This document shows, piece after piece, positions 13,777 to 62,700 of a stretch of 64,000 bases of DNA. The number at the start of each line of letters is the position of its first letter. The first letter of the stretch is position 1. A program made the position numbers and the translations under genes. The DNA lies in the NCBI GenBank assembly GCA_043228905.1, contig JBHGNT010000011.1, positions 2,356,001 through 2,420,000 of the forward strand, read 5' to 3'. This DNA comes from Azolla caroliniana (lineage: Eukaryota > Plantae > Polypodiophyta). The notes beneath the pieces are model-generated. The model saw only the letters and a list, made by a program, of their open reading frames with translations. It was not told the DNA's origin and did no database searches.

Positions 13777-14095
13777 GCTTGAATGCATGTAGCTCAGTTC
13801 GTAAGATTGCCCAATGGAGACCAGGTGGTCATGGGTTCGACCCCTGCATTCCACAATGGCATCTAGTGAAATAAGAGGTCTATCTATTGAGTAATAGAGA
13901 GATGAGAAGATTGTGTTCTGAACCCGAGATGTAGTGTTAATGACTTACCACGGGTTCGACCGCTATTCCACAATGGCAACTAGTGAAATAAGAGGTATCT
14001 ATGGAGTAATAAAGAGGTGAGAAGATTGTGTTTTGAACTCGAGACATAGTGTTAATAGTGTAAACGACTTACCACTAGGGTAAGCTGATTACAAT
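13777..14095 (+). mobile_element. tRNA-derived SINE with an internal ~120-bp duplication
   Basis: A box TAGCTCAGTTCG 13790-13801; B box GGTTCGACCCC 13834-13844; acceptor-like stem GAATGCA/TGCATTC. Second B box near 13953; 3' hairpin CTTACC-ACTAG-GGTAAG; candidate TSD AAAAGAGAGA (13767-13776 / 14096-14105). Confidence 0.72.
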
Positions 14096-38928: not shown

Positions 38929-39077
38929 TGTCGAAACCGTTGTCAGGGTAGTTGTGGTTCGTGCGGCGAAGTCGCGGGGACTAAGGTTAAGGGGAGTTGA
39001 AGGAACTTAACTTTTAATAAGGCTTGTATGGTGATGATAGAATGGTTAAGGATAGTAAGAAGAAGAGTTACGAGTAA

Positions 39078-39116
<39 letters not shown>

Positions 39117-42100
39117 AGCATAGATAAAAGATAGAGACAATGTATGATTCAAGAAAGAAGATTGAGACAAAGTATGATTCTAGAAAGAAGATTGAGACAA
39201 AGTATGAATCAAGGAACAAGAGTATATGATATAAACATGATGTATATTAAAAATATAATATTTTACCAACTTTACAATCCTTGATCGTAAGATGAATCTT
39301 TTGAATACCGACCCTTGATTTGAACCCACGACCTCAACTTCCAAACAAGAGGTTCTCCACCCAATGAGCTAGTCTTCTCTACTTGATTGTTTTATTTTTT
39401 CACTCTCTCTTGATTGATCCATTACCCTGTTTTCCCTTGCCCCTCTTTATATAAGTGTTGCCATGCATATGGTAATGTATGGGAGCATGGCATGCATGCA
39501 ATGCATGAGTTACATGTAATGCATGATCGCCATTTGGCGCACATGTATTGCACGTGATGCATGGTAGCCATCATGCTCACTTGAGCTCCCATGTATGAAA
39601 ATAGATATGGGATAAGTATAATGATGAAAATGCATTCTAAAATAACTAACCTACCTTAGTGGTGTATACTTTGTGTTTGGCATACAAGGTTGAGAGTTCA
39701 AGTCTCTCTCTCAATTTTACTTAATACAATATATAGCTTCATTCTTATATCATGAAGCACATTTATTATACACTTTTACAAATAAATAGCCTAGCCTAGT
39801 GGTATGTACATTGTACTTCGTATATAAGGATGTGGGTTCAAGTCTCTCAAATATTATTAAATACAATATTTAAGCTCATTCTTATATCGTGAAGCACATT
39901 CTTCACGACACCGTGTCAGGTCACATGCCTTTCCCGAATCTCGGCGAAGCTTTGCGTTTCTATCCAGAGGGGTCGAGATGGGCTTACAGTTGGCCATCCC
40001 GAACTTGAAGAGCATATCCAGCGCGTAATGACGTTGGCTGATCAATATGCCTTCGGGGGCGTGGATCACTTCGATACCGTGGAAGTAATGAAGGTCTCAA
40101 AGATCCTTCATTTTGAATGATGCGGCAAGCTGAGACTTTACACGGTGGATTTCATCCAAGTCGGCACCAACGATGACTAAATCATCAACATAAAGTAGAA
40201 GGCTAACCGGTCCATATTGACCTTGCCGAACAAATATTGAAGAGTCCAATTTCGACGTCGTAAACCCCTTCCTACGCAACTGTTGCGTAATCTTCGCGTT
40301 CTAGGCTCGCATGGCTTGCTTAAGTCCATAGAGTGACTTCTTCAGTCGGCAAACTGCCGAAGTGTTTCGTTCGGATAGAAATCCGGGGGGTTGTACCATG
40401 TACACCTGTTCCTCAAGATCACCTTGTAGGAACGCGTTCTTTACATCCATCTGATGTAAGTGCCACCCCTTTGCCGCAACTACGGCTAGCAGAACACGCA
40501 CGGTAGTCATCTTCGCAACCGGCACGAAGGTCTCATCGTAATCTACGTCGTGCTTCTGCGTGTAGCCTTTCGCAACTAAACGGGCCTTGTATCGATTGAT
40601 TGAGCCATTAGTATTGTATTTCACTTTATACACCCACCTACATCCGATCAGCTTAACACCCTTCAGTGCCTCAACCAGGTCCCAAGTCTCATTATCAATC
40701 AAAGCGTGCATCTCTTCCTCCATCGTGGCATGCCAGTTTGTGTCTTCCCCTGCTTCTGCATAGCTCTCGGGCTCACGCACTTCCGCCACTCGTGTCATGT
40801 ACGCGTAATGTAAGCATTGCCCTGGCCGCTTCTTCGATTGTCCGATTCTTCCGCTCGGCCACGCCGTTTTGCTACAGCGTGTATCTACACAAGAATTCGC
40901 GTCGAATTCCCTCCTTCTGTAGATAACTTGTGAACTGGTCGGAGAAATACTCCTTCCCACCATCGGACCATAGGCATTTGATCTTACGCCTTGTTTCCCT
41001 TTCCGCAAGGCTCTTCACCTTCAGGAAACATGCGAAGACTTCACTCTTCTTCGCGATCGTGCATACCCACGTGTGCCGAGTGAAGTCGTCGATGAAGGTT
41101 ACAAAGTAACGGCTTCCAATGAGACTCACGTTCTGTGCCGGACCCCACACATCCGAATGGATCAAATTCAACGAATTTCGACTATGATTACGCTCATTAG
41201 GGAATGGAAGTCGGTGTTGTTTTCCCACCTGGCAAGCTTCGCAGACTTGGCCATTCCAGCCTTGAAATTTCGGCAAGCCGAACACAATGTTCTTCGTCTG
41301 CATTTCATGAAGCCGCGGGAAGTTAATATGGCCGAACTGCTTATGCCACAGGTCGATGTCTGACTCGACCTTCTACCCTTTCGCAAACATAGTGGTGCCC
41401 ACATTGTTGGTTTCGAGGATAAACATCCTCCCTTCATGGCGCCCTTGTGCGATTACTTTGCCCTCCTCTTCTATGAAGCACCCTAGATGCGTGAATCGAA
41501 CCTGCATCCCTTGGTCGATGATCTGTCCGACCGACACCAGGTTCTTCGTTATTGTCGGGACGTGTAGCACATTCAAGAGTTTCCCTTTCTGCCCGACATG
41601 GATGAGGGGAACTTCACCAACATGTTCGATGGTATGCGGGGTGTCATCTCCCATTTCGACTACCCCTTGCTTTTCCGGCTTCTCCAAGTACGAGAACCAT
41701 TCCTCGTGACTCATCATATGATTTGACACTCTGGAATCAACGTACCACACCTCGCTCAATTTCGAGGTGTTCACGGTCATTGAATTGGCCTTGTGCTTCA
41801 TTACGAAGGTAGGGCCCGATCCATTTCCGGCTCATTCGGAGTCCTCGGCGTAGTGCGACTTTTGATGCCTTCCTCCGTCTCTCCCGTTTGGTCCAGCTTT
41901 GTCCGAATCAGCTTGTTTCTTCTAGCACTCGCTCTCCCTGTGGCCTTTCTTCCCATAGTACCAGCATTTCATTGTGGCCTTATCTTGCCGGCTTCTAGCG
42001 CCGCTATGACTCCCCTTGCTTCCAGAGGGTTCAGAATTGCTTCTGACATTTCGATTATGCCGTCCATTCAGCTCTTTGCGGCCACCTCCATTATGTGCCG

Positions 42101-44446: not shown

Positions 44447-46235
44447 TGACGGGAACCGCACGCTCCCTATACGCAACGCCCGGCCACAACCGAGCTTAGA
44501 ATCATACACAAAAAATGGGAAATAATGAACGACACGAAGAAGAGACGAGTACGTAGGATGTTTACGTGGAAAAAACCCAAACTAAGGGAAAAAACCACGG
44601 CAGCCCACAGGCTGCAAACTATCACTATGTTAGAATGTACAACAGTGAGTTCACGGAGGCAACGACCTCGTGCTACCGATCCTCGCCACAGGCGGCGGTT
44701 ACAACAGAGGCAACGACCTCTTTCTCTCTGTACACAGTTACGCGCTCTCTCTCTCCTTGCACCAACAAGAATGACAACCACCAAAAGTTTGCCCTAAGTC
44801 ATATTTATACTAATATGACTTTTCGGCTATTTACAAATATAGCCATGATGGGCTCTCAGAAACATATTTACGAATATGTCTCTTCATCCGGTCTTGACCG
44901 GGTCTGCACCATTCGGCTCTCCGTAGCCGGGTACTCCTCATCCGGTTCTCACCGGGTCTGCACCATCTGGCTCTCCGTAGCCGGGTACTCCTCATCCGGT
45001 TCTCACCGGGTTTGCACCATCCGGCTCTCCGTAGACGGGTACTCCTCATCCGGTCTTGACCGGGCCGGCACCATCCGGCTCTCCGTAGCCGGGTACTCCT
45101 CATCCGGTCTTGACCGGGCTTGCACCATCCGGCTCTCCGTAGCCGGGTACTCCTCATCCGGTCTTGACCAGGTCTGCACCATCCAGCTCTTCGTAGCCGG
45201 GTACTCCTCATACAGTTTCAATGGACTCTCAGAAGCATATTTACGAATATTTCCCTTCGTCCGGTGAGCACTTCTCACCGGGCCTTCACCATCCGACTCT
45301 TGCCGGGTACTCGTCATCCGGTTCTCACTGGGCCTTCCTTGCTGGGTACTCCACATCCGGTTCTCACCGGGTCTTCCGTTGCCAGGTACTTGTCATCCGG
45401 TTCTCACCGGTTCTTTCGTTGCCGGGTACTCGTCATCCGGTTCTCACCGGGTCTTCCGTTGTCGGGTACTCCACATCCGGTTCTCACTGGGTCTTCCGTT
45501 GCCGGGTACTCCATATCCGGTTTCTCACTATTCTTCTCACTTCCCATCCGGAGGAACCTGTTTCCTAACAAACTCCCCCTTCACTCCAGCATGGGATGTC
45601 TTACTAGTCCGATCCGCTTCCGACATGCATCCAGCTTGTCAGGTATCAGTGCTTTGGTCAGCATATCTGACCCGTTCTCGGCCGTGTGGATCTTCATTAG
45701 TGCGAACTCTCGATCTTCTACTCACTCTCGGATCCAGTGATACCTACGCTGGATGTGCTTTGTCCTGGAGTGGTACGCTGCGTTCTTAGCAAGGTGGATG
45801 GCACTTTGACTGTCGCAATAGAGCCGGTATTCATCTTGTCGGATATCGAGCTCTCCGATGAAGTCCTTCATCCATAGTATTTCCTTGCTGGCTTCCACAG
45901 CCGCCATGTACTCCGCTTCCGTGGTTGACAACGCAACCGTCTTCTACAGCCTCGACTGCCACGAAACAGCTCCCCCTGCATATGTCATTACATACCCGGA
46001 TGTAGACCGGCTGGTATCCACATCAGCCGACATGTTCGAATCGGTAAAACTGTCAAGTTGAGGTTTATCGGTGTCGTGAAGTATGAAAGCTTCACATTAA
46101 AAGTCTACAATAAGATAAATACGTAACTAAAATAACATTTGATAATGTTTTATAACAACACATATGATAATATTATATATATGTAAAGAAAAATAATATA
46201 TATATATATAGATAAATATATTATATTACACGAAC

Positions 46236-46822
46236 AAGAGAGGACTTGAACCAATAACCCCACCCTATGACTCTCAAATCTTACCATTTACTCTATACTA
46301 GTAATATACATAAAATAAAGCATACTTTATATATACTTTATATTACATAAAGGATTTGCTTCATGATATAAAAATAAAGTTGTATGTTGTAGTATTTTGA
46401 GACTCGAACCAACAACCTCATACACCAAAGTCAACACACCTACCATTAAGCTAGGCCCTTTCTCTTTAAGATTATATTTTCATGTTTATTGTTATTGCAT
46501 ATATTGTTTCATACATAAAAGCTCAAATGAGCGAGATGTTTATCATGCATCACATGTAATGCATGAACGCCAAATGGCGATCATGCATCACATGCATGTC
46601 TTGTACCCTCCAATGCATCATATGCATGGGGGCACCTATTTAAAGGGTGAAAGAGGAGATCAAAGGGAGATATGTATGAGATATCAATCAAATTATGTAT
46701 TTCATAAGAGATACCATAAAAATAGAGAAAGAAGGGAAGAAGTTTAACATAAACGTGGAGCTCTAGCTTGGCGGTCGTGGTGGTCAACTCTCAACAAGAG
46801 GGAGGCGGTTCGAGCCTTATCT
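46236..46822. promoter_or_regulatory. Three tRNA-like A/B-box modules flanking an RY-rich TATA core in the G1 LTR (repeated at about +15075 in the 3' LTR)
   Basis: On -: A 46284-46295 / B 46242-46252 and A 46443-46453 / B 46400-46410. On +: A 46764-46774 / B 46807-46817. TATTTAAA at 46637-46644. Confidence 0.7.
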
Positions 46823-47237
46823 TCATCAAAATATTGAAGTGAAGATTATAGTGGTCTACGATCAAGAAAGAGAAGAGCGATTACCTTGCAAGACAAAGTT
46901 CGGAGGATCAACGACGTGTACAATCATTTTGTAACTCTTTCATGAAAATGATTATAAATTTCATACACTTTCTCATATATTATTTTATATCTTATCTTGT
47001 CTTATCTTATATTCCTTAAAAATCCTAATTTGTCATATCTTATTGATCTCTATTCACTCCATCTCTACTCTTTCGTCTCTTCTGTCCATAATCCCAGTGA
47101 TTCTTTCCTCACTTTCACGTTATCCTTTGTGTGCGCAACGCTACGCTTCTAGGCGAGCCACGTCACGACACAATTTCATGAACCCGACGTGAAACGGGGA
47201 AGTAGAAGAGACATCTAAAGTAAAGATCAACATCAAC

Positions 47238-48773
47238 ATGGCAAGTACGAGTACAATGGATCCGGTAATGTTGTTTATTGGAAAGTTGAATCAAGATCGA
47301 TTATTTCATGCCTTACGAGAAGTCCGACAGAAGATTGGTATGTTTGATGGCACAAATATTTCGAAGTATGTGAATATATATTATGATGAAATGGAAATGT
47401 TTGGTATAAATGATGTCAATAATGAAATACACGCATTGCATAGTTTGGATTGGAATGCATTCAAAGAAGCACTTGTGTCTGAATATGCTCGTGAGGATTT
47501 CTCTCGAGTTACTATGCGTTCATTTCATGAATGGATCTTAAAAGAAGATAAAGGGTTATCTGTGGCTGACACAAAAAAAGAGTTTGATCGGATGTATGGA
47601 CACTTAAAGCCAGAAGAAAGAAATTCTTTGTCTTGGCAAAAGGTTGCTTTATTTTTGCAGGCAGTTGACAAGAGATATAGAAAAGAATTGGAATTCATGC
47701 TTGAAGTACCAAATACTGAGGATGGCATAACGACAGATTGGAATGAGGTAACAAATGCTTGTAATAAATTTATGAAAAGAATGCAAAGGAATGGTGTAAT
47801 GCTACAAATACCACATGTGGGAAACACAAATCGGCTTGAGCAAAACATTGAAGTTCAAAGACTTGGTCGAGAACCATCACACGAAATGGTCCATCAACCA
47901 CGAGAAATGACGGGAACTAAGAGTGAGTTTTTGCTTGATGATTTAGTTCAAAGTATGAAAGATCTAACAATTAAAGTGGCAAAGCTTGAGAATGGTCAGA
48001 CTTCGAGGTCAAGGGAACCATTTCGACCTCGATGCATGTGGTGTGATAGTCTCGAACATCGTCTACGTGATTGTGAAGAATATAAAGACATGGAGAATCG
48101 GGACTTGGTCTATTGGAAAAATGGTAACATTTACTTAACTGAAACTAGTACTCCGCTTACAAAGAACTTTGGTGATGGTGGTGTTAAGGTTAAATTTGAA
48201 GAAGCTGAAGCAAAGAAGGCTTCCGCAATGTATTACTCGGCAACGGCAGGAATGCGCCTCGATGACATGCCATCCCGATCATCATTCTGGGAGAAGGTTG
48301 TAAGTACCACACAAAAGCAAAAGATGAAGATGGAAGACCTTCGTGTTGCCGGAGATTCTGTGAGGAAAAACACTAGATGGGATGTTCCAGTAGATGTTAT
48401 GACAGTCTATGCTCAAATGGCAGAACACCAAGAGCATGAGGTGATAGTGGAAGAAAAAAGGAAAAGATCGGATGATGAGATTGGCTCAACCAAAAAGCAT
48501 GAAACAAGAGAAAGCAAAAGAAAAGAGATGGACGCAAAAGTTGAAAAAGGTAAATCTGGTCCTTCATTCAAATTAATGTCTGATATTGAAAAGGATACAG
48601 ATTTAAAGAAAGTTTTAGAAACAAGAATACTAGACAGTCGAGTAGAATTTACACTAAGAGAAGTGTTAGGTATTGCAAAAAAGGAATTTCATGATGAAAT
48701 AATTGATATTGTGCGAAGAAAGAAGCAAGTAAATGAGCAGGTTAAAGAGACAAATCCGAAGGTGAAGTGGTGA
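47238..48773 (+). CDS. G1 gag
   Basis: 511-aa ORF after the PBS; FDGTNISKY capsid start; CX2CX4HX4C knuckle (CMWCDSLEHRLRDC). Confidence 0.85.
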   Translation: MASTSTMDPVMLFIGKLNQDRLFHALREVRQKIGMFDGTNISKYVNIYYDEMEMFGINDVNNEIHALHSLDWNAFKEALVSEYAREDFSRVTMRSFHEWILKEDKGLSVADTKKEFDRMYGHLKPEERNSLSWQKVALFLQAVDKRYRKELEFMLEVPNTEDGITTDWNEVTNACNKFMKRMQRNGVMLQIPHVGNTNRLEQNIEVQRLGREPSHEMVHQPREMTGTKSEFLLDDLVQSMKDLTIKVAKLENGQTSRSREPFRPRCMWCDSLEHRLRDCEEYKDMENRDLVYWKNGNIYLTETSTPLTKNFGDGGVKVKFEEAEAKKASAMYYSATAGMRLDDMPSRSSFWEKVVSTTQKQKMKMEDLRVAGDSVRKNTRWDVPVDVMTVYAQMAEHQEHEVIVEEKRKRSDDEIGSTKKHETRESKRKEMDAKVEKGKSGPSFKLMSDIEKDTDLKKVLETRILDSRVEFTLREVLGIAKKEFHDEIIDIVRRKKQVNEQVKETNPKVKW

Positions 48774-49354
48774 GCAACGAGTCAAACAATATCGTTGTTG
48801 ACTCTCAACATGCATCAACCTCAATGATAAATTCAACAGATGTAAGAAGCCATTACTCTCGCAAATGTTGGGCAAGAGCCACTACTGAGACTCATGTGAA
48901 GATTGGAAATGTTCCAGACCCCGTGATGGCACTTATTGATCATGGTTCTGAAATAAATATAATGAGTGCTGATTTTTACAGGAAAGGTAGATGGCCAATT
49001 GATACTCAACATGGTTGGCGAGTAAAAGTTGCCACATCAGTCACGGAAGATTTATTTGGTGCATGCCCAAATGTAAAGGTTACTATTGGTGATATAGAGG
49101 TAGATCAACATTTCTTTGTGCAGGAAGGATCTACCTATCCAATAATCCTGGGGCAACCATACATTACAGCGGTACGAATGGAGACCAAAGTCCTCGACAA
49201 TGGTTCTGCCTATGCAAAAATCCGTAGCCAAGATGGACGACGAACTGTACAATTTATGACAGTTCGCCCAAATCATGAGAGGAACAAGCAAGAGCTTCGT
49301 GATCACTCAATACCAAAAGACTATGATGATTTTGATAATCAGGTTTTTGACTAG
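48767..49354 (+). CDS. G1 aspartic protease (probably fused to gag before a 1-nt deletion)
   Basis: ALIDHGSEINIMS and YPIILGQPY motifs; -1 frame relative to gag with no canonical slippery heptamer. Confidence 0.8.
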   Translation: MVSNESNNIVVDSQHASTSMINSTDVRSHYSRKCWARATTETHVKIGNVPDPVMALIDHGSEINIMSADFYRKGRWPIDTQHGWRVKVATSVTEDLFGACPNVKVTIGDIEVDQHFFVQEGSTYPIILGQPYITAVRMETKVLDNGSAYAKIRSQDGRRTVQFMTVRPNHERNKQELRDHSIPKDYDDFDNQVFD

Positions 49355-52300
49355 GACTGTTGCGAGTGAGGGTTGCAATAGTCCCATTATTAAAAGACCC
49401 TCATATAGGGCATTACAACATATGAATAAGTCATTTCATGTTTCTGAAAGTGGTGCTATATGTGTGACTAGGATGTATGAATGCAAGAGGAACTTGAAAA
49501 AGAATGCTAATCTGTTTCAGCAGGCATTGAAGGATAATGGAGTACTTGAAATGGAAGAGCAGATTGAAAGTGTTATGGAAGAAATTTCTTTTGCAAATAC
49601 TTTAGAAGAGTTAGAAATGTATTTGAAAGAAGATGATGAGAATGTTAGAAAGATACATGTAAACTCAATTGATATGTATTATGAGATTGATAGGTATAAT
49701 TGTAAATATGAAGAAGTAGAAAGTTTATGTAATACAAAATACAAAACAATAGATAAAAAGGTCAAACCTGCTGCAGTACCATTACCTATTGGTAGTGAAG
49801 AGAAGATGGAGGCAGTAGCAACCGAGCCTATGCTTCGACCAATAGAGAAGATCGGACATCACTTCACTTCGGAGACAATAAATAACTTGAGAATCGGAAG
49901 GGGTGAATTTCTTCTGCAATCAGAGATCGTGACTTTCAAAGAAATGATCTTTAGGCATGGGAAAGCGTTTGCATTCAAAGCTGAGGAGATTGGTTGTGTA
50001 AATCCAAAGGTGGTGACGCCAATGGTAATATTTACTATCCCTCATATTCCTTGGAATTTTAAACCTATTGCAGTACCGAGAGCTCGATTACCTCAATTGT
50101 TGGAGTTGCTGAAGGATAAAGTCAAGATGAAGATTTTAGAGCCTTCAAATGCACCATACTCCAATAGATGGTTCACAGTTCCAAAGAAAGATGGTTCTCT
50201 AAGATTCATTCAAGATCTACAACCAGTCAACAAAGTCACAATCCGAAATGCGGGAATTGGACCGATCGTTGATGAATTTGCGGAAGCGTTTGCTGGAAGA
50301 GCGATTTACTCTATGGGAGACCTATATTCAGGATACGACCAATTTCAACTAGCAATTGATAGTCGCAACATCACAACAATGAAAACACCAATTGGGTTGG
50401 TTCGAATGTGCACTCTACCTCAAGGTGCGATGAATTCGGTTGCTCATATGATGAATGCAATGAACAAAGTTCTACATGAATACATCCCAAAGGTAACTAT
50501 GCCATTTTTAGATGATATTCCTATTAAGGGATGCTTAGAAAGAGAGAAAGATGAGACTATGGTTGGAAATGGTTGCAGAAAGTTTGTGATGGATCACATT
50601 AATGACTGTGAAAGTATTTTAAATAAGCTTGAGCAGGTACATTTAACACTATCAGGAACAAAGTCTTGCTTTGGGCAAAACGAAGTTCTAATAGTTGGTC
50701 ATATGTGTGGGTGGTATGGGAGGAAACCTTCACCGATCAAAATTAACGCAATACAAAATATGAAGGAAGTTTGCGACTCGGTGACAGAGGTGAGAAGATT
50801 TTTGGGTGCATGTGTGTTTTATCATATTTGGTTACCACACTTTGCACATGTCTCAGATCCTCTCTACCAACTTTTAAGAAAAGGAAAGAAGTTTATTTGG
50901 ACTGATGAACATACACAAGTTGTTCAACAGCTGAAAGAAGCATTACTGAAAGCACCAGTTCTTCGTCAACCAGACTACAAAGGTGAAAGACCAATTATAG
51001 TAACAGTTGATACTAGCCCAATCGGGATCGGTTGGGTTATCAACCAAGAAGATGAAGACCAACATCGATATGCTATTAGATTTGGAGCAAAGATATTAAA
51101 TGAAAGACAAAGAAACTATGCACAAGTTAAACGAGAATTGTGGGGTTTGCTTACTGCATTAAAAACAGATAGAGATTACTTGATCGGAGCAGATGTAGTG
51201 GTTGAAACAGATTGTTTGCCACTCATTGGAATGATAGCAAGTTGCACGACACCAGATATTGCAATGCTTCGGTGGATTGCATACATCAGAACCATGAACC
51301 CAGAATTGCGGCATATAAAGGGAAAAGACAACCCAATTGCAGATATGCTGTCAAGGGCAAGGTTCATAAATGAAAAGGTGATGCAAACTGAAGATAAGAA
51401 CTGGGCAACTACAAGCCATCAATTTGCTCATCAAGAATCTATTACGCCTCATGATGAGTTTAATGTAAGTATAATGTTCAAAGATGTGGAGTATGAAGGT
51501 CAATGGTTAGAAATAGGAAATTTTCTAAAGACTCAAGAAGCCAACCCATCATGGTTGAAGAAACAATTAAATGAATTTCGAAGACGAGCATTCAAGTTTT
51601 TTTTACATGAAGGGCATTTATGGAGGCGTTCAAAAAGGCCAACCGAAAATCCTCTTCGAGTCATTTGTAAGGATGACATTAAGAGAAAATTAATTAATGA
51701 ATTCCATGATAGTTTGTGGGCAGGACATAGAGGCATATGGGCGACATTTGTTGGTATTTCGGTCCCTCCGGATGGGATGTCCGGAAATGAATGACGGCAA
51801 GCCCGGTTGCGGTTACGGAGCCGGATGAAGAAGACCCCGGCTACGGAGCCGGATGATGAAGACCCCGGCTACGGAGCCGGATGATGAAGACCCCGGCTAC
51901 GGAGCCGGATGAAGAAGACCCCGGCTACGGAGCCGGATGATGAAGACCCCGGCTACGGAGCCGGATGACGAATGTACCCGGAGAGAGATCCGGATGCGGG
52001 GACATATCTGTGAATATGTTTGCCAAGGGCCCTTGAGGCTATATTTGTAAATAGCCCGAAAGTCATATGTGTATAAATATGACTTAGGGCAAACTGTTCT
52101 TGTGGCTGGTTGTTGTTGCTCATTTTCTGTTTTTTCCTTTTAGAGGGAGAGAAGTGAGAGCAGCCGAGAGAGAGAGAGAGAGACGAAGAGGTCGTTGCCT
52201 CTGTGTACTGCCGCCGCCTGTGGCGAAGACAGTGAGCTCAAGGTTGTTGCCTTGTAGCTTCACCATTGTACATCTCTGTTTATACTGATAGTTGGAGTTT

Positions 52301-52480
52301 GAGGACTCCCGTGGTTTTTCCCCATTTAGGGTTTTCCACGTAAAACATCCTGTGTACTCTTCTCTCTATTGTCTTCGTGCATCTTGTATTTCCTGTTTTC
52401 TGTGAGTTGATCCTATTCCTCGGTTGTGGCCGAGCACTGTTTTTCAACAAATTGGTATCAGAGCACGGTTAACACAGAAA

Positions 52481-55400
52481 ATGGAAGGCGGCGGTAGTGG
52501 GCCTCCGGGCATGATGGTGTTGAACTCACATAACTACGCCGACTGGAAGATAAAGATGGAAGACCTTCTCATCGTCCGAGACCTGTATGAACCGATCAAC
52601 AATGCCGAGATACCCAAGGGGGTAATAGAGTCGGAGTGGAAGCTCCTGAACCGGAAAGCCGTAGCGACGATCCGGCAATATGTCGATGTAAGCGTTCTAC
52701 AACATGTGGCGAATGACACCAACGCATATGAGATGTGGAAGAAGCTGTCGGGCCTCTACGAGAGGAAGAATGCGTTGAACCGGACCTCCCTGATGAGGAA
52801 GATAGTGAACCTCAAGTACCGGGATGGCGAGAATATGGTGGAACACGTGAGCACGTTCATGGGATTCGTGAACCAGCTTGCGGCGATCAAGTTCCCGTTG
52901 GAGGATGCAATGCAAGCCATCATTCTGATGTGTACATTGCCGGAAAGCTGGGAGAACTTGGTGGTGACTCTCAGCACCTCCTGCACCGAAGATAACTTGT
53001 CTCTACAAACGGTAAAGACAAGCATTTTGAACGAAGAAGCGCGTCGGAGAGATAAAGAACCGGCCTCCGACTCGAAGGCGCTGCTTACCGAATCGGAACG
53101 GGGAAGACAATGGAACCGGAGTCCGCAAAGACGGGAGAAGTCGGGGACCCGGTCGCAGTCAAGAGGAAGGCCCACATGCTTCCACTGTGGGAAGCCGGGG
53201 CACTTTCGAAAGAACTGTCGGCATTACCGAAAAGACAACGGAGCCGACGATACCGATTCGAAGAAGTCACCGGAGCGAAACGGTGCATACCGGGGAGCCA
53301 CGGACCGGAGAGGTCCGGATCGGCGAGGGCAGGACCGGAAAGGAACGACGGCACTCGCGGCAAGTGAAGAAGAGATAATGCTCATTACCGAAGAGAGGGA
53401 GCTGAACCTTGCCGGTGAAGAGATGACCTGGGTGGTCGATTCCGGAGCGTCGTTCCACCTGACCCCGGAGAAGAAATACTTCTCATCCTACACAGCCGGT
53501 GAGCACGGCTGTGTCCGGATGGGAAATGAAGGCACATGCCGGATTGCCGGCATAGGAGACGTGTGGCTGATGACATCAACCGGATGCAAGATGCTGCTGA
53601 AGGATGTTCGACACGTTCCGGAGGTCCGATTGAACCTGATTTCGGCCGGGAGGCTAGACGATGAAGGCTACACGGGTAGCATCCGGAACGGTGTCATGAA
53701 GTTCAGCAAGGGGAGCCTGATAGTGGCTCGGGCCCGGAAGGTCAACACACTGTACCTGATGAATTCCCGGCTATGTCCGGAGGAGCTGAACGTGGCAGCC
53801 GACACTGCCGGTGAGCTGTGGCACAAGAGACTGTGCCACATGAGTGAGAAGGGGATGAAGAGGCTTGCAGAAGACAACCTTATTCCAGTGAAGCATGTGC
53901 ACCTGGAGAAGTGCACCGACTGCCTGGCCGGTAAGCAAAACAGAACCTCCTTCCACTCAAGGCCACCGACGAGACGTAGCGCACCATTGGAGTTGGTGCA
54001 CACTGACATGTGTCAAGTAGAAACGAAGTCACATGGCGGAGCCCAGTACTTCGTGACATTCATTGATGACCACAGCCGGAAGCTGTGGACGGCACCGTTG
54101 AAGACAAAGGACCAAGTATCGTCCGTCTTCAAAGAACTCCACGCGAGAGTGGAAAGGGAATCCGGCAAGAAGCTGAAAGCGATACGAGCGGATAACGGAG
54201 GGGAATACCGGGGGCAGTTCCAGGAGTACTGTCGCTCGAAGGGAATCCGGCTCGAGTTTACTGTGCCGAAGACGCCGGAACTGAACGGGCTGGCCGAGAG
54301 GATGAACCGGACCATAATGGAGAGGGTCCGGAGTATGCTGGCGCATGCGAAATTACCCAAGGGGTTTTGGGCTGAGGCAATGTCGACGGCGACATACGTG
54401 ATAAACAGATCACCCTCAGTACCTTTGGACGGAGACACGCCGCAGAGAGTGTGGACCGGTAGGGAAGTATCCTACCGGCATCTGAAGGTGTTCGGGTGTC
54501 TCGCATACGTGCATGTGGCAAAGGACCGGAGAGGAAAGCTAGATCCAAAGACCCGGCCATGCATATTCCTCGGTTATGGCGATGATGAGTTCGGCTACCG
54601 AGTATGGGACCCGGTCGACAGAAAGATATTCCGGAGTCGTGATATCATCTTCATGGAGGTCAAGACACTCGCCGACTGGGAGTCGGAGAAGAAGATGAAG
54701 AGCTCCAAGTCGACCGGTTAGGATCAACTCTACGAGGAACAGTCCCGACCGGCAAGGGACCGGTTAGCACTCGAGGATCTGGCCGAAGACGGTGAAGAAA
54801 TAGAATCGGCCGAGGAAGATGAAACTGATACCGGAACCGGCCCCGATCCCGAAATGGATTCAGATGAAGAAGAAACGGAGGAGCCGGTTACCGAAGCTCC
54901 GGAACGGAGATATCCTCTAAGAGAGAGAAGGGCCCCCCGGAGATTTCCGGAACCAGAGCACGTGCTGCTAACCGACGAGGGGGAGCCGGAGAGTTTTGAA
55001 GAAGCAAAGCTTGACAACCATAGCCGCAGGTGGTTAAGTGCCATGCAGGAGGAGATGGATTCCCTGCATGAGAACCACACATATGAACTTGTGGAGTTGC
55101 CGAAAGGTAAGCGGGCACTTCGAAACAAGTGGGTGTTCAAGCTGAAACCGGGAGATGCCGGAAACCCCCCGAGATACAAAGCCAGGATCGTAGTGAAGGG
55201 GTTCCAGCAGAAGAAGGGCGTCGACTTCGACGAGATGTTTGCCCCGGTAGTGAAGATGACCTCCATACGGACGGTGCTGAGCATAGCGGCAAGCATGGAC
55301 CTCGAGGTAGAACAGATGGACGTGAAGACGGCATTTCTTCACGGTGACCTCGAAGAAGAGATCTACATGCAGCAACCGGAAGGATTCGAGAAGAAAGGGA

Positions 55401-56554
55401 AGGAGCACCTGGTATGCCGGTTGAAGAAGAGCCTTTACGGACTGAAGCAGGCTCCCCGGCAATGGTACCGGAAGTTTGACTCCTTCATGACCGACGAAGG
55501 GTACCACAGAACGCAGTCCGACCACTGCGTGTTTGTGAAGAAGTTCGAAGGAGGAGACTCTCTAATACTCCTCCTGTACGTGGACGACATGTTGATCGTC
55601 GGACGGGACCAGGGCAAGATACGGATGCTGAAGAAAGCACTTCACCGAACCTTCTCAATGAAGGACCTGGGTCCGGCGAGGCAAATACTAGGGATGCATA
55701 TCATCCGGGACCGGAAGAAGAAGCAGTTGTGGCTGTCATAGGAGAAGTACGTGACAAAGGTGCTTCATCGGTTCAACATGTCGGAAGCAAGACCGGTCGG
55801 ATCAACTCTCCCGGCAAACTGCAAGTTGTCCAGCAAGCAAAGCCCCAAGACAAAGGCTGAGAAAGAGGACATGATGAAAGTACCATATGCCTCCGCCGTC
55901 GGAAGCTTGATGTACGCAATGGTATGTACAAGACCGGACATAGGATATGCAGTCGGAGTGGTGAGCCGGTACATGAGCAATCCCGGCAAAGAGCACTGGA
56001 ACGCGGTCAAGTGGATACTCCGATACCTGAAGGGCACGGCAAACGTGTGCCTCCGATTCGGCTCCTGTAAGCCCGAACTCGACGGCTTTACCGACTCGGA
56101 TATGTCGGCTGATGCAGATACCAGCCGGTCCACATCTGGGTATGTGATGACGTATGCAGGGGGAGCTGTCTCGTGGCAGTCGAGGCTGCAGAAGACGGTT
56201 GCATTGTCAACCACGGAGGCGGAGTACATGGCGGCTGTTGAAGCCGGCAAGGAAATAATATGGATGAAGGACTTCATTAGAGAGCTCGGTATCCGGCAGG
56301 AGGAGTTCCGACTCTACTGTGACAGTCAGAGTGCCATCCACCTTGCGAAGAACGCGGCCTATCACTCCCGGACGAAGCACATCCAGCGAAGATATCACTG
56401 GATCCGGGAAAGGATAGAAGACCAGGAGTTCGTGCTGACGAAGATCCACACGGACGAAAACGGGTCAGAAATGCTGACCAAAGTGCTCACACCCGACAAG
56501 CTGGAAGCGTGCCGGAAGAAGGTCGGACTGGAAAGACATCCCATGCCGAAGTGA
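52481..56554 (+). pseudogene. T3 gag-pol: single frame with two premature TAG stops
   Basis: ORF pieces to 54721, 55741 and 56554 share a frame; stops at 54719-54721 and 55739-55741; all copia domains are present. Confidence 0.93.
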
Positions 56555-56987
56555 AGGGGGAGTTTGTTGGTATTTCGGTCCCTCCGGATGGGATGTCCGG
56601 AAATGAATGACGGCAAGCCCGGTTGCGGTTACGGAGCCGGATGAAGAAGACCCCGGCTACGGAGCCGGATGAAGAAGACCCCGGCTACGGAGCCGGATGA
56701 TGAAGACCCCGGCTACGGAGCCGGATGATGAAGACCCCGGCTACGGAGCCGGATGATGAAGACCCCGGCTACGGAGCCGGATGACGAATGTACCCGGAGA
56801 GAGATCCGGATGCGGGGACATATCTGTGAATATGTTTGCCAAGGGCCCTTGAGGCTATATTTGTAAATAGCCCGAAAGTCATATGTGTATAAATATGACT
56901 TAGGGCAAACTGTTCTTGTGGCTGGTTGTTGTTGCTCATTTTCTGTTTTTTCCTTTTAGAGGGAGAGAAGTGAGAGCAGCCGAGAGA

Positions 56988-59758
56988 TAGATAGATAGAT
57001 TATATTATCGTCTTCGGAGGTCAAATATGACCTATGAGACCAAAAATATTACATTTCACGTGATATGTGTGAAAGTGAGTAGTGACTCTCGATGTTCAAG
57101 AACTTTACCAATGAATGTTGCAATCGAGAGTGCACATTGTGGTTGTGAGAGGAATTCATGCAAAGATTGGGCTCGATCGAAGAGATGTGTAAAGCATGGT
57201 CGAATATGATCAAAGGCAGAGCATTGTATCAAAGTGTGATACTCAGACTCGCGAACTTGTTTAGGGCAAAGTGTGCATAACCGACCACTCTCATCACTTG
57301 TACCCCAACGCCCTGTTTCACATCGCAATGCATGTGAGCTAAGTCGCATGAAAGCAATGGTTCGAATGGAAGATAACGGTATGGGCTCTAACATGTATGG
57401 ATGTGTACGATTTCCCCGTTCCGCGAAGAATATGGTTTTGTAGTTAGGTGCAACATGTGTAGTATAATGTGTGAAGCGTGAGCCTCCACATTTGTCCCAT
57501 GTCATGATACATTGGCGTTGCAAAAATGCCTCATTTACAGAGGAATCTAATGATGCATCATGAAGCAAGTGTCTCGCATCCCATCTACCAAACCATTTTT
57601 CTATATCTTGCATCCAACCGGAACACAAAATTTTGCTTTTATGCGTCTTTTGGATCTTTTTGCTTGCTTCCCACGCAATTCTAGGAAGTCGATGTGAGGG
57701 ACTTTTTTGAACCTTAAGCATGTATTCAACAACCCTTTCCATGGCCATGATCTCAATGGGAAGCGATCCCGTCTCAAGGAGGAGGAGGGTGTAGGGCGTT
57801 TGTTTCTTAACTTGTAGAAACTTGGTAAGAAAATGCTTTTGGACATTTTCAAACTCTTTCCACATAGATTTAGGGATGCTACCGCCCCATACTTCCACCC
57901 CATAGAGAAGAACCGGTGTCACCAAAGTGTCGAAAAGATATTTCTTGAGGACCCAACACTTAATATCTCCAAGATTGCATGTGTTCTCAAATGCATAGTA
58001 TGCTCGCTTGCCCGCCTCTAAGCGGCGTGTAGCACATTCATTCCATCTATGATTTGAAGGAACTTCAAGGCCAAGATATTTGAAGCTTTCCACACATTCA
58101 AGTGGCTCATTGTTGTACATAATGCATGGTTTATCTCTTTTTTGGCTCTTCACAAGCATAATCTTTGTTTTAGAGCTATTGACACTTAATTTAGTATGCA
58201 TGCAAAATTTTTCCAATGCCTTCATAAGCTTTTGTGCATCTCCTAAAGTATTTGCAAAAAGCACTACATCATCTGCATATAGCAAAAGCATAATCACAAC
58301 ATTCCCAATGGCAACTTCTTCAACACATTCTTCCTTTGCAAACTTGGTAACCATTTCTTCCAATTCATCAATGCATAGACCAAATAGTGTTGGTGAGAGT
58401 GGGCATCCTTGCTTAACACCAATAGTGCTTTTGAAAAAATCTGAAAGTTTATCTCTCATGCGCACACAACATATAACCTTCTCATAAATTCGGGAAATTG
58501 CAAGCATATATTCACTTGGCACCTCAAGTTCTTCCATTCGCCTCCAAAGATGCTCACGAGGTACCATATCAAAAGCTTTCTTGAAGTCTACAAAGCAACA
58601 ATATAAACCTTTACCTCTAAGGCGACTTTCCTCCGTTAATACTCGAAGGGTGATAAGGTGATCAATGGTGCTATGGTGTTTCCGAAAGCCAGCTTGTCCA
58701 TAAGCTCTCTTACCACTTTTTTCAGCCCATACACTTATCTTTGATTCCATTATACATCCAAATAGTTTTGCCATTAATGAGCCAACCATGATGGTTCGAT
58801 AGTTGTTTACATTATTTATATCTCCACCTTTATGTAAAGGTTTGATCCAATTTGTAGTCCAATCGTACGGCATACCATGTTGCAATGCATCATTAAACAT
58901 ATCGCTTATCCATATATGTGCTTCCTTTCCCGTCCATTTGAGCATTTCAGCCTTTATACATTGAAGATCGCTTGCCTTTCGAGAGGCCAATTTCTTAAGT
59001 CCTATGCATATATCTTCAATTGTAAAGAAGGGAGGCATATGTGAAAGAGAACCATAACACATCATCTTTCCGGCAAGAGATAACTCATATAAATTCTTAC
59101 AATGCATAGACAAGTCGTGAAGAGTTAAGTCACCATAACTCTCAACACGTTTTCCCTTTAGATTTCCCCAAAATTTAGCACATGCATGTGCTTTCTCTTG
59201 CGTTTGGATAAGTTGTTGAGTAACTTCCCATATTCTTCTCTTTCTTTGAATAAGCCTTTTATACTCATGCAAATGCTTTTGGTAATTCTCTTTATCCTTA
59301 ACTACATCCAAAACCATAAGGCACTTTCGAGCTTCATGACATTCTTTATCAAACCATTTTTTCCTAAGTTTCTTGGTGCATTTCCAAGATGTGCGATTGG
59401 TCGAAAAACATTTGTTTGTACATGAGAGAATGACTTTCTTGAAAGCTTCCCATTTGCATTCTAGTGTGGCACCATGTTGTATCTTTGTCATTTGTAACAT
59501 ATCCTCAACCATCTTGGAATACATGGGTGCTCGCTTAAGGTTCATGCTCAAGTGCGGTTGTTTATTATCTTCAATAGCCTTCTCACAATCAAACCTATGC
59601 ATACATTTGAGATCGATACATAAAGGCCTATGATCGGATTCCGGTGTCCATTCACCAAGTGAGAATTTATGTATACGATCCAAAATACATTCGGAAAGTA
59701 GCACATAGTCAATCACACTATTTCCATTGTGTTTTCTACATGTAAAACCATTAGTGTT
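56988..59758 (-). mobile_element. 5'-truncated RTE-group (RTEX-like) LINE inserted in the (GA)n tract of the T3 3' LTR
   Basis: (ATCT)n tail on -, short 3' UTR with hairpin AGGTCA-TATT-TGACCT; LTR sequence resumes on both sides. Confidence 0.9.
57056..59716 (-). CDS. LINE ORF2: APE C-terminus, reverse transcriptase and C-terminal CCHC
   Basis: Open to the truncation point; SVIDY...SDH, NYRTI, QAGFR, FVDFKKAFD, GVKQGCPLSP, LLYADD, FKYLG, RLSSHALRCETGRW..CTLC..ESEYH...C. Confidence 0.92.
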   Translation of the reverse strand: MIDYVLLSECILDRIHKFSLGEWTPESDHRPLCIDLKCMHRFDCEKAIEDNKQPHLSMNLKRAPMYSKMVEDMLQMTKIQHGATLECKWEAFKKVILSCTNKCFSTNRTSWKCTKKLRKKWFDKECHEARKCLMVLDVVKDKENYQKHLHEYKRLIQRKRRIWEVTQQLIQTQEKAHACAKFWGNLKGKRVESYGDLTLHDLSMHCKNLYELSLAGKMMCYGSLSHMPPFFTIEDICIGLKKLASRKASDLQCIKAEMLKWTGKEAHIWISDMFNDALQHGMPYDWTTNWIKPLHKGGDINNVNNYRTIMVGSLMAKLFGCIMESKISVWAEKSGKRAYGQAGFRKHHSTIDHLITLRVLTEESRLRGKGLYCCFVDFKKAFDMVPREHLWRRMEELEVPSEYMLAISRIYEKVICCVRMRDKLSDFFKSTIGVKQGCPLSPTLFGLCIDELEEMVTKFAKEECVEEVAIGNVVIMLLLYADDVVLFANTLGDAQKLMKALEKFCMHTKLSVNSSKTKIMLVKSQKRDKPCIMYNNEPLECVESFKYLGLEVPSNHRWNECATRRLEAGKRAYYAFENTCNLGDIKCWVLKKYLFDTLVTPVLLYGVEVWGGSIPKSMWKEFENVQKHFLTKFLQVKKQTPYTLLLLETGSLPIEIMAMERVVEYMLKVQKSPSHRLPRIAWEASKKIQKTHKSKILCSGWMQDIEKWFGRWDARHLLHDASLDSSVNEAFLQRQCIMTWDKCGGSRFTHYTTHVAPNYKTIFFAERGNRTHPYMLEPIPLSSIRTIAFMRLSSHALRCETGRWGTSDESGRLCTLCPKQVRESEYHTLIQCSAFDHIRPCFTHLFDRAQSLHEFLSQPQCALSIATFIGKVLEHRESLLTFTHIT

Positions 59759-62700
59759 AGAGAGAGAGAGAGACGAAGAGGTCGTTGCCTCTGTGTACTG
59801 CCGCCGCTTGTGGCGAAGACAGTGAGCTCAAGGTTGTTGCCTTGTAGCTTCACCATTGTACATCTCTGTTTATACTGATAGTTGGAGTTTGAGGACTCCC
59901 GTGGTTTTTCCCCATTTAGGGTTTTCCACGTAAAACATCCTGTGTACTCTTCTCTCTATTGTCTTCGTGCATCTTGTATTTCCTGTTTTCTGTGAGTTGA
60001 TCCTATTCCTCGGTTGTGGCCGAGCACTGTTTTTCAACAACATTTATGAAGTTGAAAGAAAAGTATTGGTGGCCACATATGTACAAAGATGTAACGAAAT
60101 TTGTGGAAACCTGTGAGGTTTGCCAGAGGTATTCAACTATCCGGTATCGAGATGAGCTAAAACCAACATATTCATCATCAATGCATTACAAATGGATGGT
60201 TGATTTAGTGACAATGCCACTTGGGGAAGGTCAAATGCGATATTTAGTACTAGCAAGAGAAGACCTTACAAACCAAGTAGAAGGAAGACCACTACGACAA
60301 AAAACAACTAGAGCTGTATGTAAATTTTTGTTAGAAGATGTAATATGTCGTTATGGGTGTGTTGGTAAAATAATTGCAGATAGAGGAGAACTCGACTCTG
60401 ATGAAGCTAGAGAATTCTTCAGCCGAATAGGGGTCAAATTATCACTTACAACTGCGTATAATCCAGAAGCCAATGGAAAGATTGAAAGAGGACATAGCCC
60501 AATAGTTAAGGCGATCGTGAAAAGCTGTAAAGGTAAAATAAGAGATTGGCCACGCATGCTACCTTATGCACTATGGGCGGATCGAACAACTCATAGTTCA
60601 GTAACAGGATACATGCCCGCTGAATTGATACTTGGCCAAAAGCCCATCATGCCGATAGAAGAATCAATTATGTCATGGATATCTATTCCATGGAGAGAAG
60701 AGGTGAGCAGAGAAGAATTACTTGCTTTGCGAATTCAACAATTAGAGCGTCGACCTGAAGATATAGAAATAGCAGCCCAACGATTGAAGGAGGCTCGACT
60801 AAAGAATAAAATCTGTTTTGATAAAAGTCATAGAATTCGACCTAAGAAAATAGAAGAAGGAGATTGGGTGCTCGTGTACGATAGCAGTTTAGATAATCAA
60901 CATAGCACCGTCCGCAAGTTCGCTGAAAGATGGTTTGGGCCTTATATAGTAAGAAAAGTATATGATAACTTTACTTATAAGCTTAGTGAATTGGATGGGA
61001 CACTAATCCTAAACGTGGTAGCTGGAAAGAGGATAAAAGTATTTAAGAAAAGGTTTGAGCTTGAACCTCCTCCGATAGATCAACATGAAGATGAAAGATA
61101 GTGGCACATGCCGGAGGATGTGCAGGTCTAGAGGGGTTTATCGGTGTCGTGAAGTACGAAAGCTTCACATTAAAAGTCTACAATAAGATAAATACGTAAC
61201 TAAAATAACATTTGATAATGTTTTATAACAACACATATGATAATATTATATATATGTAAAGAAAAATAATATATATATATATATAGATAAATATATTATA
61301 TTACACGAACAAGAGAGGACTTGAACCAATAACCCCACCCTATGACTCTCAAATCTTACCATTTACTCTATACTAGTAATATACATAAAATAAAGCATAC
61401 TTTATATATACTTTATATTACATAAAGGATTTGCTTCATGATATAAAAATAAAGTTGTATGTTGTAGTATTTTGAGACTCGAACCAACAACCTCATACAC
61501 CAAAGTCAACACACCTACCATTAAGCTAGGCCCTTTCTCTTTAAGATTATATTTTCATGTTTATTGTTATTGCATATATTGTTTCATACATAAAAGCTCA
61601 AATGAGCGAGATGTTTATCATGCATCACATGTAATGCATGAACGCCAAATGGCGATCATGCATCACATGCATGTCTTGTACCCTCCAATGCATCATATGC
61701 ATGGGGGCACCTATTTAAAGGGTGAAAGAGGAGATCAAAGGGAGATATGTATGAGATATCAATCAAATTATGTATTTCATAAGAGATACCATAAAAATAG
61801 AGAAAGAAGGGAAGAAGTTTAACATAAACGTGGAGCTCTAGCTTGGCGGTTGTGGTGGTCAACTCTCAACAAGAGGGAGGCGGTTCGAGCCTTATCTTCA
61901 TCAAAATATTGAAGTGAAGATTATAGTGGTCTACGATCAAGAAAGAGAAGAGCGATTACCTTGCAAGACAAAGTTCGGAGGATCAACGACGTGTACAATC
62001 ATTTTGTAACTCTTTCATGAAAATGATTATAAATTTCATACACTTTCTCATATATTATTTTATATCTTATCTTGTCTTATCTTATATTCCTTAAAAATCC
62101 TAATTTGTCATATCTTATTGATCTCTATTCACTCCATCTCTACTCTTTCGTCTCTTCCGTCCATAATCCCAGTGATTCCTTCCTCACTTTCACGTTATCC
62201 TTTGTGTGCGCAACGCTACGCTTCTAGGCGAGCCACGTCACGACATCGGAGCCGAATCAGAGACACATATCCAAAGTGCCCTTCAAGTACCGGAGTATCC
62301 ATTTGACCGCGTTCCAGTGCTCCTTGTCGGGATTGCTCATAAACCGGCTCACCACTCCGACTGCGTATCCTATATTCGGTCGGGTACACACCATTGCGTA
62401 CATTAAGCTCCCGACGGCAGAGGCATATGGAACCTTCATCATATCAGCCTTCTCTGCTTTCGTCTTCGGGCTTTGCTCACCGGATAATCTGCAATTTGCC
62501 GAGAGTGTTGATCCGACCGGTTTCGCTTCTAAAATGTTGAACCGTTGAAGCACCTTTGTCACGTATTTCTCTTGTGACAGCCACAATTGCTTCGTTGGCC
62601 GATTCCGGATGATATGCATCCCCAACATCTGTCTTGCCGGACCCAAGTCTTTCATTGCGAAAGTTCAGTTGAGAGCCTTCTTCAGCATCCGTATTCTGGC

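Follow-up and report, generated by a model that had tools for sequence, protein, structure and literature searches.

We found that the long terminal repeats (LTRs) belonging to G1, a Phygy-like Ty3/Gypsy retrotransposon, and to a number of its relatives contain tRNA-derived modules in which the A and B boxes of a type-2 RNA polymerase III (Pol III) promoter start 43 or 44 nt apart. The feature is real and conserved, and apparently undescribed for the Phygy-like lineage. By analogy with the tRNA genes (tDNAs) that act as chromatin barriers in yeast, we favor the reading, to which we give a probability of roughly 0.45, that Pol III complexes on these modules would hold the adjacent Pol II promoter open within nested repeats.

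The window analysed here, a stretch of 64,000 nt, is plant DNA made up mostly of nested retrotransposons. Its AKR2-like gene matched ferns best (67% over 410 aligned residues), with Sphagnum at 64–65%, a lycophyte at 61% and P. patens at 65%, the last represented by a short protein; these matches place the host among the seed-free land plants. G1 is inserted in a Copia element and is flanked by a 4-bp target site duplication (TSD) of the NCGN type, TCGG (left copy 46068–46071, + strand; right copy 62246–62249), the empty site of which is visible in an intact related Copia at 17290–17370. Its 5′ LTR of 1099 bp (46072–47170, +) and its 3′ LTR (61145–62245, +) differ by four substitutions and one 2-nt indel. 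Between them lie a primer-binding site (PBS; 47176–47193, +), the gag (DUF4100), protease, RT and RNase H frames (47193–51794, +) and an integrase frame (60001–61101, +), in which no chromodomain match was obtained at E ≤ 0.1. A nested Copia (51747–60040, +), with a LINE-like RT frame in its 3′ LTR (57056–59827, −), splits pol; once this insert is subtracted, G1 measures about 7.9 kb, and its domain order, PROT-RT-RH-INT, is that of Gypsy elements. The 18-nt PBS is conserved in the family and related loci (38 of 41 identical), and its isotype is tentatively assigned to tRNA-Trp, in agreement with Phygy. In G1 itself, two adjacent PBS positions (47177–47178) deviate from essentially all family contigs and related loci. 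Self-priming, considered for G1 because its PBS does not start with TGG, was rejected, since the related loci and family contigs have the ordinary form. The 10 bases ahead of the 3′ LTR (61135–61144) are identical to the host flank ahead of the 5′ LTR (46062–46071), in place of the family polypurine tract (PPT) junction, so that the 3′ LTR alone appears to be flanked by a TSD; this copied flank may reflect inter-LTR conversion or an artefact of assembly polishing.

Phygy is a non-chromovirus Ty3/gypsy lineage with a 4-bp NCGN TSD, a tRNA-Trp PBS, no added polyprotein domain and a length of 7.7–10 kb, as given in the accessible part of its description (Neumann et al. 2019, PMC6317226). G1 agrees with it in the NCGN TSD, the absence of an extra domain and the length, and probably also in the isotype of the PBS. 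Of 10 full 5′ LTRs from related elements, 7 likewise have an NCGN left flank. We therefore call G1 Phygy-like, a probable assignment made by traits matching the published description. In the same accessible part, Phygy is reported as Physcomitrella-specific and tRNA-like LTR modules go unmentioned (PMC6317226). Pol relatives with 61–70% identity (P0031, P0048 and P0117) occur in Riccia and Adiantum, which suggests that Phygy-like elements may extend beyond Physcomitrium.

The G1 5′ LTR contains two antisense modules upstream of a TATA-like box (46637–46644, +) and one sense module downstream of it, and all six boxes are present as had been claimed in the original prediction. Module 1 (46232–46302, −) has its A box at 46295–46284, in a 12-nt form that is the weakest among the three, its B box at 46252–46242 and a T5 run downstream at 46193–46189. 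Module 2 (46390–46460, −) has its A box at 46453–46443, an AGG motif, its B box at 46410–46400 and a T5 run downstream at 46374–46370. Module 3 (46757–46827, +), which likely lies within the transcribed R region, has its A box at 46764–46774, its B box at 46807–46817 and its first T4 at 46927–46930. The distances from the B boxes to these T runs are, in increasing order, 25, 48 and 109 nt. The A-to-B start spacing is indeed 43 nt in all three modules, and the sense module, predicted about 120 bp downstream of the TATA box, has an A box that begins 127 nt past it. As also predicted, the triad is present in each G1 LTR, the 3′ LTR repeating the B boxes at 61327 (−), 61485 (−) and 61882 (+). The TATA-like box belongs to the presumed Pol II promoter and aligns with TATA-like boxes in G2 (described below) and related LTRs. 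The interval between it and module 2 holds a CATG-rich palindromic block (46540–46630, unstranded), a putative enhancer common to the LTRs of G2, L014, L022 and L025.

The same triad occurs in G2 (38941–39910, −), a solo LTR of a second family with the TSD ACGG: two of its B boxes are antisense to the LTR (39835 and 39695) and one is sense (39326, spacing 45). G2 is about 70% identical to G1 over 250 nt of U3, and both were inserted at NCGN sites in Copia coding sequence. The whole window contains 21 strict B boxes, nine of which have an A box at 25–60 nt: seven of these pairs are spaced by 43 nt and all lie in Gypsy LTRs, and the remaining two are a tRNA-Phe gene at 44 nt and a Copia pair at 30 nt. 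Among 2000 dinucleotide shuffles of the G1 LTR, none had even one A and B pair at 43–44 nt. In line with the predicted lack of a full cloverleaf, neither ARAGORN nor Rfam gave a tRNA match on the G1 LTR; the sole tRNA called by ARAGORN in the window was tRNA-Phe (7430–7504), and Rfam gave no tRNA match at E ≤ 10 in 46000–47300. Seven weak non-tRNA Rfam matches in that interval (E 0.8–9) were taken as chance. Recent SINE insertion had been named as an alternative origin, and all six window modules proved to be free of an A8+ tail, with a longest flanking repeat of 0–8 nt that was AT-rich.

Several other features of the window are recorded here. The tRNA-Phe(GAA) gene lies about 350 bp upstream of a 438-aa frame (5758–7074, −) with no Pfam match. 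A tRNA-like head outside LTRs (13790–13845; A and B boxes, spacing 44) opens a unit of about 120 bp that is repeated twice (13790–14080), just upstream of the AKR2-like gene; it had no match among the 80 related loci described below and is possibly a SINE-like repeat. Tandem repeats of 54 bp (44880–45534) and 40 bp (21284–21707) are located within Copia elements, near their 3′ ends.

Related LTRs were collected through a Pol alignment of 35 proteins; of the 163 metagenome loci confirmed with it, the best 80 were taken. LTR pieces were obtained from 51 of the 80 loci; 16 redundant pieces (near-identical, or second from one family) and pieces of <200 nt were dropped, leaving a final set of 45 LTR pieces (34,310 nt) with G1 and G2 included. 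B boxes were searched for with one mismatch allowed and with all A-box offsets from 20 to 89 open. We found 48 B boxes, of which 19 had an A box at offset 43 and three at offset 44 (22/48), and every other offset in the range accounted for at most two cases. When the window LTRs were excluded, 14 of 42 B boxes had the A box at 43 and three at 44. In shuffled LTRs, B boxes numbered 8.5 per set and pairs at 43–44 nt 0.025. In 162,528 nt of pol coding DNA there were 35 B boxes, none of them paired at 43–44 nt, and 3,088 nt of Copia LTR contained no such pair. A scan of IMG/VR yielded 54 candidate stretches with no relative among them. All 19 module-positive loci come from nine assemblies with neighbouring accession numbers, possibly from one campaign.

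We compared 20 ungapped modules that had been picked on their A and B boxes alone. The tRNA positions 43–47, unused for selection, showed 78% pairwise identity, with G45 and G46 present in all 20 modules, and positions 22–42 and the flanks showed 33%, which is near random. The modules thus share a third motif beyond the two boxes, RAGG, at tRNA positions 43–46 (AGG at 44–46), which the original prediction did not mention. This bears on a check proposed with the original prediction, that boxes be compared with spacers across copies: among families that share about 71% RT-RH identity, the boxes are conserved but the spacers have diverged to near-random levels. The four stems showed Watson-Crick pairing of 0.34, 0.28, 0.26 and 0.48, as compared with 0.29, 0.24, 0.25 and 0.46 in column shuffles, and in none of the stems did it rise above the shuffles (p = 0.09, 0.23, 0.46 and 0.37). 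ARAGORN found no tRNA gene in any of the 16 related loci scanned. The modules were accordingly rejected as tRNA genes, given the chance-level stem pairing and the lack of an ARAGORN or Rfam tRNA call. With a profile in which C56 and R57 were masked, 34 distinct modules were obtained, including three outside Phygy-like LTRs (L040:12026, L046 and L074). The masked dinucleotide was CG in 14, CA in 18, TG in one and TA in one; taking one module from each of 13 spacer groups, the means were 5.4 for CG, 6.9 for CA and 0.7 for those starting with T. CpG decay is thus retained only on the side that spares the B box, although some ancestors may have had A57. Since the boxes, their spacing, C56 and AGG are kept, with spacers near random and cloverleaf pairing at chance, the sequences make it quite probable that selection for a DNA-level Pol III promoter acts on the modules.

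Such selection could serve the Pol III RNAs themselves, short antisense transcripts from U3 and sense transcripts from R acting in trans, perhaps as decoys or as precursors of small RNAs. A T4 was found inside none of the 20 modules, as compared with 5.4 expected, and within 35 nt past the B box in 11 of the 20, again with 5.4 expected. This avoidance within modules and enrichment right after them favors an RNA product, and foamy-virus LTRs are described, in the part of the report available, as having Pol III-transcribed miRNA cassettes in U3 (PMC3993851). Both T4 signals were weaker with one module per 13 spacer groups (1.0 vs 3.6 expected inside, 6.0 vs 3.3 downstream). However, the spacers are at the random level between families and the orientation of the modules is free. 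Nor was a stable hairpin found in the three predicted G1 transcripts (z = +0.5, −1.0 and −0.7) or, on average, in the 20 modules (mean z = −0.44), where z served only for excluding strong hairpins, a real tRNA-Phe itself scoring −0.31. We consider selection for the transcripts unlikely, although it deserves to be kept in mind.

The arrangement of modules varies widely among families. Clustering of 56 RT-RH sequences at 90% gave 31 families, nine of which had no U3 sampled; of the other 22, with presence or absence labelled by hand, 10 carry a module and 12 have no intact one. The module-positive representatives have a median RT-RH identity of 71% (range 67–96%). Module presence switches seven times along the RT tree; L036, for instance, has no module, yet its RT groups with those of the module-positive L024/L025. 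The outward-facing triad was found in only two of the 10 module-positive families (G1/L001/L052 and L014), plus the solo G2. Thus, the original interpretation held as to conserved units resembling type-2 Pol III promoters that are not recent SINEs, and was not supported as to the outward triad being the rule. One antisense upstream module is present in L004/L008/L078, L024/L025 and L061, and a single antisense upstream module with a weak downstream one in L022 and L010. The upstream module is in the sense orientation in L035, L039, L041 and L043, L013 has a convergent pair, and L034 has overlapping upstream modules with a downstream module facing inward. From these varied layouts, the shared element is one module, in either orientation, about 100–350 bp upstream of the TATA-like box. 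A clear downstream module occurs in a minority of families, and decayed modules were seen in L003, L007 and L010. We conclude that the modules are optional accessories, not essential parts. LTR-like inserts in L046 (3827–4116) and L074 (1661–1856) have a different 5′ end, the same antisense module (spacing 44) and the palindromic block; judging from these, the module may have reached another LTR lineage. L040 also has a module-like unit (~12026–12070) that adjoins Copia-like sequence and does not belong to its Phygy-like LTRs.

These layouts bear on the idea that the Pol III complexes are a brake or roadblock, which would damp the Pol II promoter of the LTR, stop read-in from upstream nested elements or aid termination in the 3′ LTR. 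The position of module 3, downstream of the TATA box, would suit such a role, and free orientation is equally compatible with it. Budding-yeast tDNAs repress neighbouring Pol II reporters 2- to 60-fold, as cited in the accessible part of PMC2040200. On the other hand, the upstream module is commoner than the clear downstream one, and G2, L014, L034 and L052 have tandem duplicates of their upstream modules, a tendency probably shared with U3 elements that activate. A brake or roadblock is a somewhat more doubtful proposition than selection for the transcripts.

The modules have been duplicated, exchanged and lost. In G2 and in L014, the two upstream modules form a tandem repeat with a duplicated unit of about 140 bp; an additional B-box half is present in L052. 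The LTR of G1 is mosaic, combining U3 blocks of two LTR families: nt 1–217 resemble L001 (74%), nt 277–577 resemble L025 (81%) and L014 (79%), and nt 692–1099 resemble L052 (80%), with the donor block beginning near the donor's own LTR start. Module 2 was therefore acquired from a family with about 71% RT identity, and the triad persisted after the exchange. In four sequencing runs, a variant at 46406 that alters C56 in the B box of module 2 accounted for 814/1179, 1275/3617, 154/1005 and 135/1203 contig-depth units, that is, for 69%, 35%, 15% and 11% of contig depth, which does not equal copy number. In the G1-family contigs from the same four runs, no variant at ≥15% was found in the boxes of module 1. 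Evidently, some G1-family copies lose the module 2 B box, as read from these contigs.

This history would also fit neutral relics, tRNA- or SINE-derived heads that were taken up on a few occasions and then disseminated through U3 recombination, in which case the conservation would reflect shared ancestry together with repeated fresh capture. The patchy presence with its seven changes on the RT tree, the mosaic G1 LTR, the decayed modules and the C56 variant are all in keeping with it, as is the tRNA-like head outside LTRs at 13790–13845. However, fresh captures should retain stem pairing and spacer similarity, and the modules retain neither; those in the window also have no tails and no long flanking repeats. 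The one-sided CpG decay argues against relics as well, as does a spacing that is fixed even though the LTRs of distant families fail to align. We disfavor neutral relics, which seem to us a little less credible again than a brake.

A further alternative places the function in RNA, where U3 of the genomic RNA would anneal to the primer tRNA or to tRNA fragments, or would mimic the tRNA elbow. Ty3 has a bipartite primer site, the conserved positions correspond to universal tRNA loop residues, and fixed spacing with G45 and G46 would suit an RNA partner. The same pattern is, however, found in both module orientations, and no stems are retained. The family PBS implies a primer with U59 and A62, whereas, of the 34 modules, 32 have R59 and 33 have Y62, these columns being part of the scoring profile. 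Pairing with or mimicry of tRNA is therefore very improbable. Least probable of all is a landing pad that draws Pol III-targeting retroelements or seeds non-autonomous TRIMp3 derivatives: Helenus TRIMs are present in Selaginella according to the part of PMC10886601 available, but the three window LTRs are free of nested insertions, G1 and G2 landed in the coding part of Copia elements rather than next to a Pol III unit, and the carrier has no clear gain.

We return to the reading that the modules keep the Pol II promoter open. In sequence, they combine a tRNA-like A/B spacing, the lack of an internal T4 and a downstream T run, the T-run signals being weak after grouping. They cannot serve to transcribe the genomic RNA, since two of them point the other way and T runs are met no more than about 110 nt downstream. 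From known Pol III biology, the modules would bind TFIIIC, which would load TFIIIB and Pol III. TFIIIB would sit on the A-box side, which in G1 is the promoter side of modules 2 and 3, and these two would flank about 300 bp holding the palindromic block and the TATA box. The complexes would then protect the adjacent Pol II promoter from nucleosomes and from spreading silencing once the element has inserted into other repeats. The by-products would be short Pol III transcripts, about 90–170 nt in length, and the open promoter would be the selected benefit, by analogy with yeast tDNA barriers. In fission yeast, a tDNA barrier requires the A box, TFIIIC and Pol III and works regardless of orientation, as described in the accessible part of the report (PMC2040200). 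The modules likewise occur in either orientation, undergo tandem duplication and U3 block exchange between families, and are carried by CG-centred insertions into the retrotransposons of the window.

Counted against this barrier reading are the 12 of 22 families with no module, the C56 variant of module 2, the T4 signals that weaken after grouping and the plant CAA upstream motif, which was not enriched (6 of 34 modules vs 6.4 expected). The strict 43–44 spacing and the AGG motif are tighter than TFIIIC is known to need, which also counts against it. Module 3 probably lies where Pol II must pass, and could impede it. If selection does act on a Pol III promoter, we put the chances that its purpose is a barrier or open promoter slightly above even, again by analogy. 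The fuller account, in which stripped tRNA promoters were captured as portable chromatin barriers, duplicated and traded by U3 recombination, and so sustain transcription after CG-site insertion in silenced repeats, is one we put forward tentatively, as a shade less probable than the open promoter by itself.

Were it true, the modules would rank as the first Pol III barrier found in plants and as a transposon-borne device that counters silencing in cis, and the 70-bp module would be a portable insulator useful for plant transgenes. AGG at tRNA positions 44–46 and the strict spacing are constrained features that plant TFIIIC may read. The families offer a natural test set, with zero, one, two or three modules, both orientations, sister elements that differ in having a module, and copies whose B box is broken.

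The literature covered, which lay outside most subscription papers and Repbase, contained no tRNA-type promoter modules in LTRs of autonomous plant Gypsy or Phygy elements, and no description of a Pol III shielding role for a plant retrotransposon promoter was found in it. The closest known systems, not named in the original prediction, are the Helenus TRIMs, or TRIMp3, which have tRNA-derived LTR sequence that is conserved near boxes A and B but in most cases does not make up a functional tRNA (Kojima 2024, PMC10886601; here and below, as given in the accessible part of that paper). LTRs of the G1 type also hold tRNA-derived sequence with conserved A and B boxes. Helenus elements, however, are non-autonomous and 311–1263 bp long, whereas G1-type carriers are autonomous, about 7.9 kb long, with gag-pol frames, and have one to three modules per LTR, mostly antisense. 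The tRNA-like part of Helenus is proposed as its own promoter, whereas G1 has a TATA-type promoter with two of three modules facing away, which as an argument from sequence points to a different use (PMC10886601). In Kojima's reasoning, an autonomous partner must be transcribed by Pol II and is unlikely to have long stretches of LTR in common with TRIMp3 (PMC10886601). The same paper notes that "not a few" Repbase LTRs contain tRNA-like parts, of which only TRIMs were followed up, and an unpublished precedent is therefore likely (PMC10886601).

Cassandra TRIMs are likewise plant LTR elements with a conserved internal Pol III promoter in their LTRs, but the promoter is of the 5S type (type 1), the elements are non-autonomous and transcription runs from it LTR to LTR (summarised in the accessible part of PMC10886601). 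Foamy viruses share with G1 an autonomous LTR element with several U3 Pol III units that have A and B boxes and T-run terminators; their units yield stem-loop miRNA precursors, in contrast to the tRNA-derived modules of the G1 type with no stable hairpin or conserved spacer (PMC3993851, accessible part). The fission-yeast cen1 tDNA and B-box barriers resemble the modules in being an A-plus-B unit that is orientation-independent and sits at the edge of silent chromatin; they are real tRNA genes at fixed host loci, established by experiment, whereas the units described here are degenerate, mobile and in a plant, and are known from their sequence (PMC2040200, accessible part).
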